55,368 bases of DNA. Source: Candidatus Micrarchaeota archaeon (lineage in GTDB: Archaea; Iainarchaeota; Iainarchaeia; JAADDC01). The position numbers were made by a program, and so were the translations under genes. Below, piece after piece: positions 39-10,281 of the stretch; within the stretch, counting starts at the first letter, position 1, and every line of letters begins with the position of its first letter. The notes beneath the pieces were generated by a model that was not told the DNA's origin, searched no databases, and saw only the letters and a list, made by a program, of their open reading frames with translations. Where the stretch lies: the NCBI GenBank assembly GCA_027046625.1, contig JALTXX010000008.1, positions 1-55,368 of the forward strand, read 5' to 3'.

Positions 39-134
39 ATGCTTGTTCTATTCAAGTCAAGGGTTAAGAAACAGCTCAGGAAGCTTCCAAAACATATAGA
101 AAGGAAGTTCTGGAGCTTGTCAAAAAGATTTTAG
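39..134 (+). pseudogene. Truncated RelE/ParE-family toxin
   Basis: Hand translation MLVLFKSRVKKQLRKLPKHIERKFWSLSKRF* has the RelE N-terminal pattern (K.L.KL) but stops after 31 aa. Confidence 0.55.
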
Positions 135-198: not shown

Positions 199-1083
199 CT
201 AGGGGTTCACCTCCAAGAGCCTCATAATGTACTTCTTCGTCCCTGACTTAAGACGTTCAATTATTTGCCTATCCTCCTTCGGGAAGCTCGCCGATTCGGA
301 GTGTGTAGGTACAACAAATACTTTATCTATTTTTAATTCAAAAAATGCTTCCCATTGAGATAATACATACTCTATTTTGTCCTCCAAGCTCTTCAAATTC
401 TCTGCCCTACCTTGTTCTCTTCCCAAACTCTTAAATATCTTTTCTAGGCTGAAATTCTCGGAAACCCATACCCTTTCAATCTTTTCGGCCTCTCTAACGT
501 GACCAAATACATTGAGCTTAGGTTGCTTCTTTACTTTTACTTTAAAATAAATCCACTTAGGCTTCCTTAATGTTCCAAGGTTGTATGTGCGGTAAAGAAA
601 ATTATCCCAAAGGAATAGATCAAATCCTAAACCCCTGTATATGGGAACCCTTAGCTCATTAAGGTTCTCGATCAGGAACAAAACTTTCCTGTAGTCGTTG
701 ACTTCTATCTCTTCCCAAGCATTAGGCAGCTCATGATTCAGTTCTTTCACTTCAACGGTTTCCCTAAGAGAAAAGTCTTTCCTTATATCACACAGCCTCT
801 CTACCACTTCTTTAAAAATACTCTTTTTGCGATCTTCTGGAATCTTTCTTGGCATCAAAAAGAGGAGGAAGAATCCGAGAGGAATATTTAAACGGTAGAC
901 GTTTTCGTACAGGTACGTGGCTATGTGTAATAGTGTGTCCTGCGGTAATGAGTCGATTAAAATAGTTGCAGAAACAGGAAACTGCGAGACATCAAACTCT
1001 GCATTGAGAAACAAATCTACCATATCCTCTGCAATTACTTGGGCCACATACTCAGGAGAACACCTCAACGGTTCCGTCTTCAT
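199..1083 (-). CDS. Hypothetical 294-aa protein, last gene of the rSAM/precursor operon
   Basis: Long ORF overlapping the PEP-utiliser gene by 32 nt; no motif recognised. Confidence 0.8.
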   Translation of the reverse strand: MKTEPLRCSPEYVAQVIAEDMVDLFLNAEFDVSQFPVSATILIDSLPQDTLLHIATYLYENVYRLNIPLGFFLLFLMPRKIPEDRKKSIFKEVVERLCDIRKDFSLRETVEVKELNHELPNAWEEIEVNDYRKVLFLIENLNELRVPIYRGLGFDLFLWDNFLYRTYNLGTLRKPKWIYFKVKVKKQPKLNVFGHVREAEKIERVWVSENFSLEKIFKSLGREQGRAENLKSLEDKIEYVLSQWEAFFELKIDKVFVVPTHSESASFPKEDRQIIERLKSGTKKYIMRLLEVNP

Positions 1084-1357
1084 GTATCTTCACCCTTGAA
1101 TTTATGGGTATCAACCTTGTAGCATTAGGCAGACGAACACATGGCATTCCTAACTCCCTCGCATAGATAGCTATATGGGAGAGCTTTCCTCCCTCTTCTA
1201 CAATGATTCCTTTGGCATTTACAACCTTTAGCGAATCGAGCGGGGTTATCCTTCTTGCCACTATAATCTCTCCTAGTTTTTCGAGAGTAGAGGCCACGCC
1301 TTCTGCAGATCCAGGGGAGAGGACCTCTCCTTTATAGGTAGCTAACTTCTTCCTCAC
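1052..1357 (-). CDS. Stand-alone PEP-utilising enzyme mobile (phosphohistidine swivelling) domain
   Basis: SPGSAEG and GIIVEEGGKLSHIAIYARELGMPCV match the GGxxSHxAIxARExGxP signature (His61). Confidence 0.9.
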   Translation of the reverse strand: MRKKLATYKGEVLSPGSAEGVASTLEKLGEIIVARRITPLDSLKVVNAKGIIVEEGGKLSHIAIYARELGMPCVRLPNATRLIPINSRVKIHEDGTVEVFS

Positions 1358-2522
1358 TCTCTAACCACCTTTCGAGCAGTTCTTTTGCTTCTTTTTTGTA
1401 TGGGATTACATAGGGTATAACCATCTCTATCAGTTGTTTTTCGTAATCGCATGATGGCGGTACAGCATCCAGATTTCCGTTTATATATGCCAGAAATGGA
1501 CAGCCCCCTCCTCCACCACACAAACCTTTTCTATGGAGTGGACAAGAGTTACATCGCGTGTTTCTTAGAGTTTCGGCACGTTCTACCAGTTTAACGAAAT
1601 TTGAGTGCGTAAAAATCTCTTCTAGGTCATTAACATTATGTATGTTTCCAAACATAAAATCAGGGACGTGAAGACTTGCGGTTCTATTACATAAGGAGAC
1701 TGTTCCGTCCCAATCTATGGCTAGAAAGTGCCTTGTTTTTGCACAACCGATACTCATATGACAATAGGACACAGGTTTCTCAAGCACTATAGCTTGAACC
1801 GCTTTCATAAATATCGGTATATCTATCGGATCCCCATCTTTTATCCAGATATCTAATAAATTTCTCATAAATTTCAAATATTCTTGTGGTGTAATATAAA
1901 GATTGGAGAATATCTTTGCTCTGCCCCACATTATCAGCGGGCTTGGTTGTAATCCAAGACCATTTTCTTTGAAGAAGTTATAAAGTTCCTGCTCTTTGCC
2001 TAAATGGTATTTTGTAACCACCATAATAGCTCCTATATGCCTCTGGTGCTTCCTGAGCAATCTTACTGCTCGTATCACATCATCATAGCTACCTTTGTTA
2101 TTGGGATACACCCTTAGCTTGTCATGTATTTCTTTTGGTCCGTCTAGGCTTATCCCTACATAGACGTTATGTTTTCCGAAAAGACTCGCAAAATTATCGT
2201 CAAGGAGAGTTCCGTTTGTCTGTAACTTAATGCGAATTTTTACACTATCTTTTAATCCATCACCTAGTTTGCTTATGTATTCTAATGCTTTCGTATAATT
2301 TTCTATTCCCCATAAGAGTGGTTCCCCTCCATGGAATAGTATTTCTAAATTAAAGGGAGCGCTTCTTTTTGCATAGTTTAATGCTAACCTGATAGATTGC
2401 TGAAAAGTTTCAAGCTTCATAAGTCCAACATAGGGAGAATCGCCGCCAGGTACATAGCAATATTTACAACGCATGTTGCAACCATCGCCACTAGGTCTTA
2501 CCATAAGCGATAGTTGTTGCAT
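1332..2522 (-). CDS. Radical SAM/SPASM peptide maturase (anSME/FxsB-like)
   Basis: CNMRCKYC, FHGGEPLL, QTNGTLL, ISLDGP; SPASM cysteines CHMSIGC, GTVSLC, CNSC, CGGGGGC, PSC; SD GGGGTG upstream. Confidence 0.93.
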   Translation of the reverse strand: MQQLSLMVRPSGDGCNMRCKYCYVPGGDSPYVGLMKLETFQQSIRLALNYAKRSAPFNLEILFHGGEPLLWGIENYTKALEYISKLGDGLKDSVKIRIKLQTNGTLLDDNFASLFGKHNVYVGISLDGPKEIHDKLRVYPNNKGSYDDVIRAVRLLRKHQRHIGAIMVVTKYHLGKEQELYNFFKENGLGLQPSPLIMWGRAKIFSNLYITPQEYLKFMRNLLDIWIKDGDPIDIPIFMKAVQAIVLEKPVSYCHMSIGCAKTRHFLAIDWDGTVSLCNRTASLHVPDFMFGNIHNVNDLEEIFTHSNFVKLVERAETLRNTRCNSCPLHRKGLCGGGGGCPFLAYINGNLDAVPPSCDYEKQLIEMVIPYVIPYKKEAKELLERWLESEEEVSYL

Positions 2523-2586
2523 CTGTTCTACACCCCGTTATTCGTGTTTTGGACATAAAAATAAAGTAAGTAGCAAACGTTGAAGC

Positions 2587-2715
2587 TCAATACCTGTCCA
2601 CATAGTCTTCGGTGGCCCAGCTGTCGTCGTACATAGTTTTCGGAGCAACTATTTTCTCTCTGTCATACGTAACCATAGCTTTTATACTCTTACGAATGTA
2701 CGCGGGTACCTTCAT
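2587..2715 (-). CDS. Putative RiPP precursor, 42 aa MKVPAYIRKSIKAMVTYDREKIVAPKTMYDDSWATEDYVDRY
   Basis: Below the ORF-track cutoff; SD GAGGGTGA, TATA-like GTATAAAT at 2758-2751, immediately upstream of the rSAM/SPASM gene; basic leader and acidic aromatic core. Confidence 0.8.
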   Translation of the reverse strand: MKVPAYIRKSIKAMVTYDREKIVAPKTMYDDSWATEDYVDRY

Positions 2716-2750
2716 ACCATCACCCTCATCAATATAGGTGATCTTGCCCT

Positions 2751-2758
2751 ATTTATAC
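2751..2758 (-). promoter_or_regulatory. TATA box of precursor operon
   Basis: GTATAAAT on the minus strand about 25-30 nt upstream of the precursor SD. Confidence 0.55.
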
Positions 2759-2852
2759 ATTAGCGCTAGCTAAGGCCCCCGTCAATAAGAAAGGTGTGAA
2801 CGCTGTACCCGAACGGATTCATAGAGGAAAGTCTCCCCAAATGGCCTTGTAG

Positions 2853-3803
2853 CTAAAAGTACCTCTTCAGCATGCCATCAACGCTAAATATATAGTTACC
2901 CTCTCGGTCATAGGAGAGTGCATAGGGTACGAGGCTTACCTCGTCCATAAGTGAAAGAAGGTAAGCAGGCGTGTACCTTCGAATCCTGCCCACCACTATT
3001 CTGGCATTCTTCTTGAAGGGGATTTTATACTTCCAGAAATCAACCTCAACTTCCCTCTTCATCTCGATGTATATCACGATCTCCATCCTGTTCTGGTCGG
3101 CATGGTACCTCAGTATGAAGTCGTCCTCCGAAAGGCCAAAGAACGTCCTCACGCCTGCCGTGAACAGCCTTACAAGCTCTGGTACTTCAACGAACTTTGG
3201 GGCATGAGAATAAAACGTTAGAGGATCAAAGAGCGTCACGGTTACGAAGAAGTGGTCTCTGATGCCCATGGCCTCTCTTATGTTGGTGAGTATTCTCACT
3301 TCGTTAGAATGGTTACCGAGAGTTGCCCCTAGAAGGCCAATGAGCTTTGGCCTATCCGATGTCTCCAATAAGAGCCTCTGCAGGCTGAAAGAGTCGAAGT
3401 CCAGCTGGACGGGTTTTACATCCCTTGCAACAGCCCTCAGTTTTTTTGCAGCCCTCTCAAGTAGCTCTGCCGATATGTCCACGGGAACATAGTCAACGGC
3501 GATGCCCTTCTCGTTCAGGAATTCCACGAGCCTGAGGGCCGGCGTTCCCTCTCCAGACCCCAGATCTATAAAATAGAGTTCCTCTATTTTCTCGTCAGTG
3601 AGAATGTGATTGATCATCCTCTTGAGAAGCCTTGTCTCCCTAAGGCTGTACTGATCCTTTGAGTACTTGTTAAAAACACCTTCCCAGGCGGTGGCCCCCT
3701 CCTCACCCATGTAGCTGAACTTAAGGGGCAGCTCTGCCCTGCCGACGATGCTATCATAGATTTCCCTCCTCTGTTCCGGCGTGAGGAGATCCTCATTAGG
3801 CAT
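2853..3803 (-). CDS. EgtD-like (L-histidine N-alpha-methyltransferase family) SAM-dependent methyltransferase
   Basis: ELPLKFSY..EG...W, Y...E..LL, DLGSGEG, YVPVDIS, LGATLGN motifs. Confidence 0.85.
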   Translation of the reverse strand: MPNEDLLTPEQRREIYDSIVGRAELPLKFSYMGEEGATAWEGVFNKYSKDQYSLRETRLLKRMINHILTDEKIEELYFIDLGSGEGTPALRLVEFLNEKGIAVDYVPVDISAELLERAAKKLRAVARDVKPVQLDFDSFSLQRLLLETSDRPKLIGLLGATLGNHSNEVRILTNIREAMGIRDHFFVTVTLFDPLTFYSHAPKFVEVPELVRLFTAGVRTFFGLSEDDFILRYHADQNRMEIVIYIEMKREVEVDFWKYKIPFKKNARIVVGRIRRYTPAYLLSLMDEVSLVPYALSYDREGNYIFSVDGMLKRYF

Positions 3804-4043: not shown

Positions 4044-4307
4044 TTAAAGCTTCCAGAGACGCTTGTATACTCTCTTTCGGTGCTCGATTAAGAGGACAAC
4101 TATTCTTTTATCTCGAGAACGAATGTCTATGATAATTCTGTAATCGCCAACTCTAATTTTCCTATACGGAAGGTTTACAAGGGGTTCCGAATACTTCCAG
4201 GGGTCTTTCCTTATTAGCTCCAGCTTTTCACGCACGCGTGTAAGAATGTTCTTAGGCAGCTTTTTGGCATCCTTTAATACTTTTCTGCTAAACTCAATCT
4301 TCCACAC
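4044..4307 (-). CDS. relE: RelE/ParE-family toxin
   Basis: WKIEFS..LKDAKKL, YRKIRVGDYRII, HRKRVY; probable GTG start at 4307 overlapping the antitoxin stop. Confidence 0.9.
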   Translation of the reverse strand: MWKIEFSRKVLKDAKKLPKNILTRVREKLELIRKDPWKYSEPLVNLPYRKIRVGDYRIIIDIRSRDKRIVVLLIEHRKRVYKRLWKL

Positions 4308-4521
4308 CAACTTCCCTCCAGAATTCTTCCTCGGAAACAAAATCAGCTTCTGCAGCACGCTTCTTTAGCTCCTTTACCACATCGGGATCGATTATTCCTT
4401 CATCATCGTATGCAATTCCCAGCGCCTCCTCTATGATGCGCAGTCTTGTGCTGATTTCCCTAAGTGTACGAATGACTTCCTCTGTAGTTGCAGTTGTTGA
4501 CATGTTATAACAATTGTTCAT
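4294..4521 (-). CDS. Cognate antitoxin (RelB-like)
   Basis: Small acidic protein upstream of and overlapping relE; FVSEEEFW tail. Confidence 0.75.
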   Translation of the reverse strand: MNNCYNMSTTATTEEVIRTLREISTRLRIIEEALGIAYDDEGIIDPDVVKELKKRAAEADFVSEEEFWREVGVED

Positions 4522-4534
4522 TGTTATTTAAACT

Positions 4535-5154
4535 GTGAACCTTATCAATGTCCTCAACTCAGAGCTCCGCGATGAAGCCCTACGAAGATGGAAGATAGCA
4601 AAAGAGGTAGCAAAACGAGTAAATGGAGTAATCTATGGAAGTATGGCAGCGATGATGGTTGATGGACTTCCGAGACTGCCTAGGGATGCAGATATTGCAG
4701 TGGACTGGAGCCTGGATAAGTTTCTGGAGTGGTTAGAAAGTTTGAACAAGAAAGTTGGTTTGAGGTAGAACTTGTTCGTCAACCACCAGGTGTTTGGAAG
4801 AACGACGGACCACAGTATACACTTCTGCTTTGGGAGAAAGATTACAGGTTTTTCGTTAACCTTGCATCGGAGCATGTAGAATCAAATAAAGTAGTTGATG
4901 GAGCAAAACTGAGGCTCGAAAGGAATGAATACATAGAGCAGAAGAAACGGAAAATACTGGAAGGAAATCCTACGATCCTCGATCTCTTAGACCTGCTGTG
5001 GTTTGAAGGAGAAGATGCGTGGAGGTTCGCAGATTTGTTATCAGAAGATATAAAGAGAAAAATTGTAAGAAGCATAGAGAAGTATGTGAAACTTGTGCCA
5101 GGGGAGAATCAAACAATAATCGATGAGATACAAAGACGCTTACGCTTACTTTAG
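4535..5154 (+). pseudogene. Frameshifted nucleotidyltransferase (AbiEii-like/Pol-beta fold)
   Basis: ORF 4535-4768 has IYGSMAA...PRLPRDADIAVD; ORF 4729-5154 continues in another frame with a 40-nt overlap. Confidence 0.55.
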
Positions 5155-9365: not shown

Positions 9366-9557
9366 TTATCTTAGCCTGTAGAGAGGGAATTTACCCATAG
9401 CAGAAAGAACAACCCAGAGGGATATGAGCAACAATATCACACCAGTTATTATGGTTTCCAAACTCCAAGCTGCCTGATTCCATAACAATACAAAAACCAG
9501 AGCTGCTATTAAAACTGTTATAATGGCGGTTGGAACGGATGCGTAGACCTCCTTCAT
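9366..9557 (-). CDS. Small two-TM membrane protein
   Basis: 63 aa from ATG 9557 (MKEVYASV), two hydrophobic helices. Confidence 0.65.
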   Translation of the reverse strand: MKEVYASVPTAIITVLIAALVFVLLWNQAAWSLETIITGVILLLISLWVVLSAMGKFPLYRLR

Positions 9558-9591
9558 GCTTTTATTTTGGTATCCGTGGTATATAAATGTA

Positions 9592-10281
9592 ATGCAGGGA
9601 TATGATCCGATAGAGCTTGCAAGAACAACAGAAAACGTAGTATGCAAAGGGCTGGAGAGAAAATACTATAGATTTAGATACACAAGGTTCTATGGAGGAT
9701 CTGCCGCCGCAGATGTGGTGGGATGCAATTTGAGGTGTGCGTACTGCTGGAGCTGGAAATACATTACTCAACCACAACAATACGGCAGCTTCTATCCACC
9801 CCAAGAGGTGGCAAAAAGACTAAATAGTATGGGAAGAATTACAAGAATCACAGGGGGAGAGCCAACTATCTGTTTTGAGCACCTCCTAGAAGTAATAAAG
9901 AGGATAAAAGGCATCTTTATCCTTGAAACAAACGGTATACTTCTTGATGATGAAAAGGTAGAAAAACTTTCACACTTTAAAAACCTCTTCGTGAGGGTAT
10001 CCCTCAAAGGAGTGGATGAAAAGACTTTCAATTCTGTAACTGGAGCGGATGGAAAATTTTTCCACCACCAGATTAACGCTCTAAAACTGCTGTATGAGTA
10101 CGGTGTAAGAGCTCGGCCAGCCATACTTTTTAATCTATTTACAAGAGATCAGCTGGCCGAGCTCCAGAAAAGGCTGCTAGATATATGGGATGGATATGTG
10201 TTGGAGTTCGAACCCTTTGTAAATTATGGAGGTGCGTTGAAACGATTGGAAGAAAGGAGATTGCAGCTGCTGTGGCAGTAA
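9592..10281 (+). CDS. Uncharacterised archaeal radical SAM protein (COG5014-like)
   Basis: RKYYRFR, YGG..AADVVGCNLRCAYCW, TGGEPT, ETNG; probable start ATG 9592. Confidence 0.9.
   Translation: MQGYDPIELARTTENVVCKGLERKYYRFRYTRFYGGSAAADVVGCNLRCAYCWSWKYITQPQQYGSFYPPQEVAKRLNSMGRITRITGGEPTICFEHLLEVIKRIKGIFILETNGILLDDEKVEKLSHFKNLFVRVSLKGVDEKTFNSVTGADGKFFHHQINALKLLYEYGVRARPAILFNLFTRDQLAELQKRLLDIWDGYVLEFEPFVNYGGALKRLEERRLQLLWQ

Follow-up and report, generated by a model that had tools for sequence, protein, structure and literature searches.

In the genome of a tiny, symbiont-type DPANN archaeon from a hydrothermal vent (about 0.65 Mb), we identified a compact operon encoding a 42-aa precursor peptide, a radical SAM (rSAM)/SPASM maturase, a free-standing phosphohistidine carrier domain and a member of a rare protein family, termed F294 (Table 1). 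The operon lies in the window, by which we mean the whole stretch of 55,368 nucleotides that was analysed. Its gene content, conservation and synteny were observed directly, and the conserved precursor/maturase operon is very likely real. We infer a triceptide-like RiPP pathway in which Tyr-to-Asp crosslinks would be formed and a new phosphoryl-transfer module would tailor the product; as a whole, this reading stands at about even chances.

Table 1. Features of the operon and its surroundings, in coordinates of the window.
Feature	Position	Strand	Remarks
EgtD/EasF-like SAM methyltransferase	2853..3803	(-)	directly upstream; PF10017, 74 bits
TATA-like box TATAAATA	2750..2757	(-)	about 38 nt 5′ of the precursor ATG; putative promoter element
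Shine-Dalgarno-like GAGGGTGAT	2719..2727	(-)	4 nt 5′ of the precursor ATG; putative function
Precursor peptide gene	2587..2715	(-)	42 aa; core end YDDSWATEDYVDRY-COOH; homologous peptides, all ending Y-[VF]-D-x-Y
T-rich tract TTTATTTTTAT	2555..2565	(-)	between precursor and rSAM gene; similar tract in G006
Radical SAM/SPASM peptide maturase	1332..2522	(-)	396 aa; PF04055 and PF13186; no N-terminal RRE
Stand-alone PEP-utilizers 'mobile' (swivel) domain	1052..1357	(-)	101 aa; phospho-carrier His61 in GGKLSHIAIYAREL; PF00391
F294, rare family	199..1083	(-)	294 aa; without relatives in Pfam, NCBIfam or PDB; predicted to dock the phospho-His domain and serve as its acceptor domain

The translated precursor ORF (MKVPAYIRKSIKAMVTYDREKIVAPKTMYDDSWATEDYVDRY) has a basic N-terminal half, an acidic C-terminal half, no Cys and, next to an rSAM/SPASM gene, three aromatic-X-X motifs (Y29-D-D, W33-A-T and Y38-V-D). 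In these points the original prediction was accurate, and the ORF itself, the TATA and Shine-Dalgarno sequences before it and the T-rich stretch after it were all found again on re-reading the DNA. The 40 nt around the TATA-like box are near-identical in the related genome G006, where they are better conserved than the coding DNA, and the T-rich tract may act as a partial archaeal terminator. Of the window's 1169 stop-to-stop ORFs that are 25 aa or longer, just one ends in Y.D.Y. Back-translation of the C-terminal motif gave matches in two of 215 genomes of the phylum, each directly 5′ of an rSAM gene, and none with the reversed control. Over the 33 codons shared by the window and G006 precursors there are 12 synonymous and 4 non-synonymous changes, indicating selection on the precursor frame. 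An identical 42-aa protein (P0162) occurs in the public protein collection.

A small ORF lies directly 5′ of an rSAM gene of the anSME-like group in five loci (the window, G006, L020, L045 and L034), and in all five it ends in Y-[VF]-D-x-Y-stop. Six distinct precursor versions, found 5′ of related radical SAM/SPASM genes or in public data, share this ending. The protein collection adds the entries P0165, P0166 (P0165 extended at its N-terminus) and P0167, and close variants occur among DNA contigs from other samples of the same study, one of them with a G006-like DYS-repeat end at 2626. The proposal that the small ORF is a precursor-type gene coupled to an rSAM/SPASM enzyme is borne out, the gene being conserved and recurring 5′ of related rSAM genes. 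The number of YxD units per precursor is two in the window, 13 in G006 (an 81-aa peptide with a back-to-back (YSD)n array), six in L020, two in L045 and one in L034, where the peptide also has four Cys. Homologous loci had been expected to carry upstream peptides conserving YxD and WxT. Upstream peptides were present in the five loci, and YxD is conserved and expanded; what all five share is the Y-x-D-x-Y at the extreme C-terminus, and not WxT. Comparison of the loci, with YxD expanded to 13 copies in G006 and six in L020, suggests that the target is the aromatic-x-Asp unit. The rSAM probably acts on the C-terminal YxDxY core.

The rSAM contains C15-x3-C19-x2-C22 and a full set of SPASM cysteines, and it matches PF04055 (E 1e-20) and PF13186 (E 7e-8). 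It reaches no NCBIfam cut-off. The highest scores were for DynA (NF041298; 197 bits, cut-off 450) and anSME (TIGR03942; 195 bits, cut-off 349), followed by GrrM/OscB (152, cut-off 310), YhhB (148, cut-off 445), FxsB (120, cut-off 370), AmcB (108, cut-off 425) and XyeB (105, cut-off 450), and the MftC and PqqE models were absent from its best 25 matches. The closest PDB sequence is anSME (4K36-4K39; 128 bits over residues 2–338), which outscores the solved domain of the triceptide synthase ChlB (67 bits). The assignment of the enzyme to an FxsB/XyeB/GrrM type is not supported by sequence, as GrrM, FxsB and XyeB are outscored by DynA and anSME and the nearest structure is anSME. The HGGEP motif cited with that assignment is present (H64–P68), but it is invariant in 9 of 9 aligned relatives and therefore does not discriminate function among them.

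A FastTree tree of 126 rows, which excluded the reference cyclophane synthases and the L020 enzyme, placed the window rSAM in a clade with the enzyme of G006, to which it is 92% identical, and with P0002 and P0003 (support 99); the L034 enzyme is sister to this clade (support 90). The rSAMs of three of the five precursor loci thus form one clade. The four named anSMEs fall in a 17-row clade (support 99), and the window rSAM lies outside it in a separate clade of six rows. A larger starred set of 43 rows takes in the window rSAM as well as the named anSMEs, with the L045 enzyme unresolved at its base. The L034 enzyme lacks several SPASM cysteines, and the L020 gene is broken by a stop codon and a frameshift. 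The nearest relatives of the window rSAM are P0002, P0003 and P0004. By equal contig size alone, P0003 and P0133 (2428 bp) and P0004 and P0139 (15988 bp) are putative rSAM–F294 links.

As had been described, the rSAM/SPASM gene 3′ of the peptide is followed by two overlapping genes: the 101-aa gene overlaps the rSAM gene by 26 nt and the F294 gene overlaps the 101-aa gene by 32 nt. These tailoring genes, which the original reading did not recognise from described clusters, turned out to be a phospho-His carrier domain and a protein of a new family. The 101-aa protein scores 55.3 bits against PF00391 (gathering cut-off 23.1). In the PDB it is most similar to the C-terminal His domains of 5FBS and 5HV1, titled phosphoenolpyruvate synthase, which we take to be rifampin phosphotransferases; its His aligns with that of 5FBS, and all 17 homologues keep His61. 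The F294 family comprised 32 representative proteins among 1.84 billion in a profile search, all of 110–306 aa and none fused to another domain.

Sequence and fold searches gave F294 no recognisable fold or motif that would prove catalysis. The full model had a best Foldseek E of 0.38 against the PDB and, in VIA wide, a best Z of 5.9 (rmsd 2.5, 62 residues aligned), the matches all being short helical pieces. For the C-terminal alpha/beta domain alone (pLDDT 84), the best Foldseek E was 0.077 and the best VIA wide match was the Cet1 RNA triphosphatase (Z 4.7, rmsd 3.9, 69 residues aligned). Triphosphate-tunnel (TTM/CYTH) proteins made up seven of the 50 weak VIA rows for this domain (Z 2.6–4.7), a lead rather than a finding. 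The family profile had a single match among PDB sequences (E 1.4), Pfam searches of 26 family members with an E limit of 1 gave scattered single matches only, and the protein atlas gave no usable match.

In all 17 loci scanned, a PEP-utilizers ORF adjoins F294. Prediction of the F294–swivel complex scored 0.62, compared with 0.00 for the best of three controls; 58 of 80 solved complexes and two of 110 mismatched pairs score at least this high, counts that apply only approximately because the present prediction used custom alignments. Three runs agreed in at least 87% of contacts, with a partner pLDDT of at least 85, and the predicted interface contains swivel residues 55–62, including His61. 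F294 is thereby predicted to bind the swivel domain through its His loop, and it is fairly likely that the two form a phosphotransfer pair, which we read as a split phosphotransferase.

PPDK_N ATP-grasp genes were found beside the F294/swivel module in at least three loci (L049, L053 and L055) when ten neighbours picked by eye were scanned. In the window and in G006, L020 and L022 the module has no adjoining PPDK_N gene, and the sole PPDK_N of the window's genome (G000) lies in a 771-aa PEP synthase encoded on C13. An rSAM gene occurs within about 3 kb of F294 in eight of the 17 loci; none was detected nearby in the other nine, three of which are on contigs shorter than 3.6 kb. The window and G006 both have the pair overlapping the rSAM gene in one operon, and L020, L045 and L034 show this arrangement again at 30–35% identity. 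In L053, L054 and L055 the pair sits in peptide, PqqD and rSAM clusters of a different type, and elsewhere it lies beside unrelated genes (CN-hydrolase-like, AMP-binding and TPP enzyme). An M16 peptidase adjoins the module in L022, and the L045 cluster contains a PF02441 flavoprotein and a methyltransferase. PqqD had no match among the window proteins. The EgtD/EasF-like methyltransferase upstream of the precursor does not adjoin the G006 cluster and is unrelated to the methyltransferase inside the L045 cluster, and its membership of the operon is unsupported.

With the operon read in the RiPP-type order of precursor, rSAM/SPASM maturase, phospho-His carrier and F294, a pathway can be proposed. 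The rSAM would take a hydrogen from the Asp Cβ in each aromatic-x-Asp unit, and this carbon would then be coupled to the aromatic ring two positions upstream, giving three-residue cyclophanes like those formed by triceptide synthases of the YxdB type. The YxD count would determine how many rings arise, two to three in the window and up to 13 in G006. The swivel domain and F294 would act as a complex in which the phosphoryl group on His61 is handed over at a surface conserved in F294. ATP would be the source of this group, by way of a PPDK_N ATP-grasp partner whose gene lies beside the module in some relatives, and the most likely acceptor would be the peptide, perhaps at a Tyr hydroxyl within an Asp–Tyr context. 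We put the formation of an aromatic-to-Cβ crosslink slightly below an even chance, and only tentatively, at much the same level, do we regard the peptide as the substrate of the F294/swivel pair. The original claim of a polycyclophane peptide accordingly gains from the precursor, its coupling to the rSAM, the expansion of YxD and the standing of YxD as a documented triceptide motif, but the cyclophane chemistry itself stays an inference. Other observations weigh against the proposed pathway. The rSAM is below every cyclophane-synthase family cut-off and closer to anSME than to ChlB; the strictly invariant part is one C-terminal pentapeptide ending in Tyr, which fits a single-site, cofactor-type modification too; the L034 peptide has its single YxD and four Cys beside an rSAM short of SPASM cysteines; and the L020 rSAM is interrupted. 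For the second half of the pathway, the corresponding points are the four loci in which no PPDK_N adjoins the module, the nine of 17 in which F294 has no nearby rSAM, and the lack of a fold or motif proving F294 catalysis.

Four other explanations were weighed. The first, that the rSAM is a typical anaerobic sulfatase-maturating enzyme or has another protein rather than the small-ORF peptide as its substrate, which would leave that ORF irrelevant, is suggested by TIGR03942 being the enzyme's second-best model, by the nearest solved structure and by the 43-row set shared with named anSMEs. However, its score is far under the TIGR03942 cut-off and it lies outside the named anSME clade, and a conserved peptide is encoded upstream of the rSAM in five loci. 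In addition, the position of anSME Asp277, which we take to be the catalytic base described in the anSME structure paper, is occupied by Asn beside the Aux-I cysteine ('ypCDfy' in 4K37 versus 'slCNrt'), as it is in seven of nine aligned relatives. The 94%-complete genome gave no match to the sulfatase family PF00884 in a search whose control was positive in 10 of 14 genomes. This alternative is highly improbable. The rSAM could instead carry out another radical reaction on the peptide, such as epimerisation, β-hydroxylation, Asp/Tyr oxidation or a DarE/DynA-like C–O or C–N link, and form no three-residue C–C cyclophane. SPASM enzymes of a single clade do varied chemistry, which favours this possibility, as do the ranking of DynA first and of anSME, an oxidase, second and the failure to reach any cyclophane family cut-off; the aromatic-x-Asp spacing, including the (YSD)n array of G006, nevertheless fits the Ω1-X2-X3 rule, and the rSAM lacks the Asp that serves anSME as a base. 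We consider such a reaction unlikely. Of similarly low probability is that the peptide is sacrificed to make a small molecule or cofactor in the style of PQQ or mycofactocin, with the rSAM acting once on Y-x-D-x-Y, for example by an Asp–Tyr crosslink or oxidative decarboxylation of the C-terminal Tyr, and a peptidase, flavoprotein, methyltransferase and phosphotransferase finishing the product. Invariance of only the last five residues in five of five loci, with Tyr at the C-terminus, agrees with this, as do the M16 peptidase of L022 and the flavoprotein and methyltransferase of L045. In the known systems, PqqF is an M16 peptidase, PqqA is the source of Glu and Tyr, and MftA has a C-terminal Tyr. 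Against it, the 6- to 13-fold multiplication of YxD in L020 and G006 is typical of multi-site RiPP cores rather than single-site cofactor precursors, the window operon has no PqqD/RRE gene, neither MftC nor PqqE ranks among the 25 best NCBIfam models for the rSAM, and the patchy, apparently horizontally exchanged cassette is unlike a core cofactor.

The remaining alternative concerns the F294/swivel pair, which might be an independent phosphotransfer unit, metabolic or regulatory, that only happens to lie beside the peptide genes, the RiPP part then being the precursor and rSAM alone. The nine loci in which F294 has no detected rSAM nearby and the unrelated neighbours of the pair are consistent with this, but the pair overlaps the rSAM gene in the window and G006, recurs with it in L020, L045 and L034, and appears again in the peptide, PqqD and rSAM clusters of L053, L054 and L055, so that simple co-location is quite improbable.

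The distribution of the cassette is patchy and looks horizontally exchanged, and it appears to move horizontally among vent DPANN archaea. Of the baselines tried for such transfer, a Sua5-like query had no match in five relatives, a 751-aa surface-type protein was too divergent to serve, and a 249-aa neighbour from G006 had no match in G000; the GC content of the cluster (36–44%, neighbouring DNA 40–51%) is not distinctive. A genome of this size leaves little room for accessory chemistry. As a somewhat unlikely extension of the proposed pathway, a split phospho-His relay of DPANN archaea, running from a PPDK_N ATP-grasp protein through the free swivel His domain to F294, could be a novel class of tailoring machinery for RiPPs that phosphorylates or activates Tyr or Asp of rSAM-crosslinked peptides. 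The poly-cyclophane, poly-anionic product, encoded on a small cassette moving among co-resident vent nano-archaea, would then serve in symbiont–host or symbiont–symbiont interaction. The recurrence of the F294/swivel pair in several different archaeal peptide clusters makes it a candidate for a new family of enzymes that phosphorylate or activate peptides; among the literature matches listed, none tied a PEP-utilizing protein to a precursor peptide and a radical SAM enzyme. The rSAM clade, which may lie between anSME and peptide crosslinkers, could shed light on the evolution of substrate choice among these enzymes. If the cyclophane chemistry is right, Archaea would gain their first assigned RiPP of the cyclophane (triceptide-like) type: no link of triceptides or cyclophanes with archaea was found in the literature, where supplementary lists of putative triceptide pathways might include archaeal entries.

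Comparison with known systems brings out a mosaic of likenesses. Like mycofactocin and PQQ systems, the operon places an rSAM/SPASM gene beside a short peptide with conserved residues, including Tyr, at its very C-terminus, and one related locus has an M16 peptidase; unlike them, it is without PqqD, its rSAM belongs to another branch and its core units are repeated. The rSAM has the length and full SPASM layout of anSME (4K36-4K39) and, like it, no RRE, whereas it differs in the Asn for Asp277, the score below the TIGR03942 cut-off, the position outside the named clade, the lack of a genomic sulfatase and the dedicated small peptide encoded upstream. Its highest NCBIfam score is for the dynobactin maturase DynA, which makes aromatic-to-Cβ links in a short peptide; this score is nonetheless far below the cut-off, the precursors are unrelated and DynA is of bacterial source. 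PEP synthase/PPDK, rifampin phosphotransferase and PigC/RedH are three-domain phospho-His enzymes of the dikinase type. The 101-aa protein corresponds to their swivel His domain, with the catalytic His conserved, and relatives have PPDK_N ATP-grasp genes beside the module. In contrast to those enzymes, the window system is split into separate genes, its likely substrate is a peptide, and the acceptor domain is replaced by F294, with no detectable sequence or fold kinship to PEP-utilizers_C or any solved chain. Triceptides carry aromatic-to-Cβ cyclophanes on Ω1-X2-X3 motifs (PMC11499958), and YxD is a documented triceptide motif, the YxdB product having a Tyr C3–Asp Cβ link (PMC11002830, a review). 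The window differs from these systems in its archaeal (DPANN) host, in a precursor whose invariant motif, with Tyr as its last residue, occupies the extreme C-terminus, and in tailoring by a phospho-His module, which the accessible parts of PMC11002830 and PMC11499958 do not mention. Its enzyme reaches the cut-off of none of the NCBIfam cyclophane models compared (XyeB, GrrM/OscB, FxsB, YhhB and AmcB) and is nearer to anSME and DynA. With triceptides of the YxdB family it shares a small precursor adjoining an rSAM/SPASM gene and a core of aromatic-x-Asp units that are often repeated.

The window cluster consists of four co-directional genes on the minus strand (199-2760), and every sequence detail given for it in the original prediction of a triceptide-like RiPP cluster was found present. 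The genome, in which the window is bases 1-55368 of contig 8, measures 652 kb and is 94% complete. The lineage label of a sister genome is Microcaldota, a DPANN phylum, and the sequencing runs containing window DNA are labelled hydrothermal vent metagenomes. An EgtD-like methyltransferase gene lies upstream (2853-3803), in a position that is not kept in relatives. By eye, RelE/ParE-like ORFs flank the region at 39-134 (+) and 4044-4358 (-), the former being a 31-aa remnant where the contig ends; they may mark an accessory island. A 241-aa ORF with CNLRCAYC (9556-10281, +) resembles a further small radical SAM protein.

Features of the window cluster and of related loci (window coordinates unless a locus is named)
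Feature	Position	Strand	Basis
Precursor ORF, 42 aa, MKVPAYIRKSIKAMVTYDREKIVAPKTMYDDSWATEDYVDRY	2587-2715	-	sequence
rSAM gene, 396 aa	1332-2522	-	sequence
Swivel-domain gene, 101 aa, GTG start, 26-nt overlap with rSAM gene	1052-1357	-	sequence
F294 gene, 294 aa, 32-nt overlap with swivel-domain gene	199-1083	-	sequence
TATAAATA box, ahead of small ORF	2750-2757	-	sequence
GAGGGTGAT, ahead of small ORF	2719-2727	-	sequence
T-rich tract, 3' of small ORF	2555-2565	-	sequence
Small ORF of L020, MKFNNIYEDEYDDNYIDEYIDHYDDNWAGVDYVDRY			
Small ORF of L045, ...NIYFDLVRKTAHGADEYVDGY			
Small ORF of L034, ...CCTDGNCDQYFDKY			
Second cluster type with the same module	L053 3970-9358; L054 3748-8917		
Second rSAM/SPASM gene, 433 aa	L002 688-1989	-	

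Sequence comparison shows the small ORF to be conserved as a gene. The same operon was found in G006, a genome of the same family but another genus, where the small ORF is conserved (...AYNDYNDYSDYSDYSDYSDYSDYSDYLDYSDYSDYNDSWATEDYVDRY) and reaches 81 aa through insertion of a (Y-S-D)n array; the 33 codons common to both show 12 synonymous changes against 4 non-synonymous ones. The original prediction looked to homologous loci for upstream peptides conserving YxD/WxT; peptides with YxD (aromatic-x-Asp) units are present in G006 and in three more distant loci, L020, L045 and L034, each time immediately 5' of the homologous rSAM. A profile search of the public protein collection returned close variants (P0165, P0167) and an N-terminally extended form (P0166), all keeping YDDSWATEDYVDRY. 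The precursors share the C-terminal ending Y-[VF]-D-x-Y, with Y, D and Y invariant in the alignment and a total of 1 to 13 YxD units per peptide ahead of it. This conserved C-terminal motif is supported by the finding of a Y.D.Y ending in 1 of 1169 window ORFs (at least 25 aa), and by back-translated matches in 2 of 215 genomes of the phylum (0 for the reversed control).

Between the window genome and G006, the cluster proteins are 92% (rSAM), 86-87% (F294) and 83% (swivel domain) identical, whereas GatB, taken as baseline, is 56% identical and the endonuclease III encoded on the same G006 contig as the cluster is 59% identical to its counterpart. The thermosome is only 84% identical. A search of five genomes congeneric with that of the window (78-83% complete) did not find the cluster. 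Together, this disparity and the patchy presence indicate, at the sequence level, a recent horizontal exchange of the cassette (window 199-2715; locus L018, contig 33 of G006).

The rSAM carries Radical_SAM and SPASM domains (Pfam). No NCBIfam model reached its cut-off for this enzyme; DynA (197 bits) and anSME (195) were highest, followed by GrrM/OscB (152), YhhB (148), TIGR04083 (143), PapB (134), FxsB (120), AmcB (108) and XyeB (105). Given this order, the FxsB/XyeB/GrrM type originally assigned to the enzyme does not hold by sequence. The best models for the L045 and L034 enzymes are likewise anSME and DynA, below cut-offs. The closest solved structure is anSME, at 128 bits, with the triceptide synthase domain ChlB at 67 bits. 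Four observations argue against sulfatase maturation, the role of the anSMEs. Asp277 of anSME (beside Cys276), which has a catalytic role there, is replaced by Asn in the window enzyme and in 7 of 9 aligned relatives, and no sulfatase domain was found in the 94% complete window genome. The nearest database relatives, P0002 and P0003, are 42-43% identical, and the next at most 35%. In a FastTree phylogeny of 126 rows, from which reference cyclophane synthases were absent, the window enzyme, the G006 enzyme, P0002 and P0003 formed one clade (support 99), sister to the L034 enzyme (support 90). The four proteins named anSME by their sources fell in a separate 17-row clade (support 99). All these groups lie inside a single 43-row set (support 96), at whose base the L045 enzyme is left unplaced. 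The L020 rSAM (about 1069-2282) has an in-frame TAA just after CX3CX2C and a later frameshift, with peptide and module intact; either this copy is decaying or the AT-rich DNA was misassembled.

Triceptide synthases join an aromatic ring to the Cbeta of residue i+2 in Omega1-X2-X3 motifs (PMC11499958), and YxdB acts on YxD, linking Tyr C3 to the Asp Cbeta (PMC11002830). The main rival to such a reaction is cofactor-type processing at a single site, which would be the invariant C-terminal YxDxY. The YxD units beside the rSAM/SPASM enzyme are multiplied as well as conserved, which makes a YxdB-type reaction the most economical inference; the rSAM would then form aromatic-ring-to-Cbeta crosslinks on these units. 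By analogy, we consider triceptide-type crosslinking a tentative assignment with a little less than an even chance, given that the enzyme falls in none of the characterised families.

Pfam identifies the 101-aa protein as a PEP-utilizers mobile domain that stands alone. In the PDB it matches best the C-terminal His domains of entries 5FBS and 5HV1, with the His aligned; both entries are titled phosphoenolpyruvate synthase and are presumably rifampin phosphotransferase. F294 matches nothing in Pfam or NCBIfam; it has only 9 relatives by word index and 32 profile-search matches among 1.84 billion representatives, and 13 of the phylum's 215 genomes carry a member. At 17 loci, all chosen through F294 (L018-L020, L022, L034, L045-L056), a swivel-domain ORF directly adjoined F294, in either order, in 17/17, and its His was invariant (17/17). 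Complex prediction supports binding of the swivel domain to F294, with a score of 0.62 against 0.00 for the best of 3 controls. This mark was attained by 58 of 80 solved complexes and 2 of 110 mismatched pairs, counts that are only rough because own alignments were used. Contacts agreed between runs to at least 87%, with partner pLDDT of at least 85. The predicted interface comprises residues 55-62 of the swivel domain, including His61, and residues 23-36, 132-144, 150, 191, 195-199 and 220-228 of F294; of these F294 residues, R150 hardly varies in the wider family, and the nine closest members all share E143 and H195. In L049, L053 and L055 the pair stands next to a PPDK_N ATP-grasp gene (ten neighbours scanned, picked by eye); the sole PPDK_N domain of the window genome is in PEP synthase on contig 13. 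From the adjacency, invariant His, predicted binding and nearby PPDK_N, the pair looks as if it came from a split phosphotransferase of the dikinase type, representing its His and acceptor parts. We infer wholly that it would place phosphate, most plausibly on the peptide, at Tyr hydroxyls flanked by Asp.

The F294 models, with a pLDDT of 80 over the full length and 84 in the C-terminal domain, gave no convincing match to any solved fold. For the C-terminal domain (residues 105-294), triphosphate-tunnel (TTM/CYTH) enzymes made up 7 of 50 weak structural rows, under any threshold (Z 2.6-4.7) though recurrent; such a resemblance would suit a phosphate-handling site.

At 8 of the 17 loci, an rSAM was detected no more than about 3 kb from F294. 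In L045 the order is peptide, rSAM, methyltransferase, F294, swivel domain, PF02441 flavoprotein and second rSAM. In L053 and L054 it is another peptide (ending ...GIFEAW[AV]ESSDL), PqqD-like protein, rSAM (best matches AhbD, NirJ and MftC-like, below cut-offs), TPP enzyme, swivel domain, F294 and PPDK_N/other rSAM. In L022 (3345-6309), an M16 peptidase with an HxxEH motif is directly 5' of the swivel domain and F294, and no rSAM is present on the 6.5-kb contig. The module therefore occurs in several peptide-maturation settings. A 208-aa gene upstream in L022 is homologous to window 4535-5154 (+), there split into two overlapping ORFs of 77 and 141 aa, possibly by a frameshift. In L019 (74-2550; 2.5-kb contig) the pair, with an F294 47% identical to that of the window, just follows a 407-aa ORF of TnpB/IS605-type look by eye; this contig was put in the bin of the bacterium Persephonella, probably wrongly.

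Outside the window, contig 18 of the same genome (L002, 17600-21082) encodes another rSAM/SPASM protein, with best models DynA and AmcB below cut-offs and HTDG-EH-DG-RHLD repeats at its C-terminus. Immediately 5' is a 295-aa protein whose C-terminal half is dense in His/Trp/Tyr-Ser-Asp units (...HSDSHSDSHSDSHANWSDWNDTHSD...) and which looks like another aromatic-x-Asp substrate.

By title or abstract, no paper on archaeal triceptides was found. The main text of an archaeal RiPP survey (PMC12144867) contains no 'cyclophane', 'SPASM' or 'radical SAM', and names rSAM-dependent ranthipeptides and sactipeptides merely as classes. We rate the system as an rSAM RiPP in which both the enzyme clade and the precursor family are new and the tailoring module is undescribed. 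It differs from triceptide systems in an rSAM that scores below all NCBIfam cut-offs and stands outside the characterised families, but resembles them in the YxD units beside the rSAM/SPASM enzyme of the window operon.
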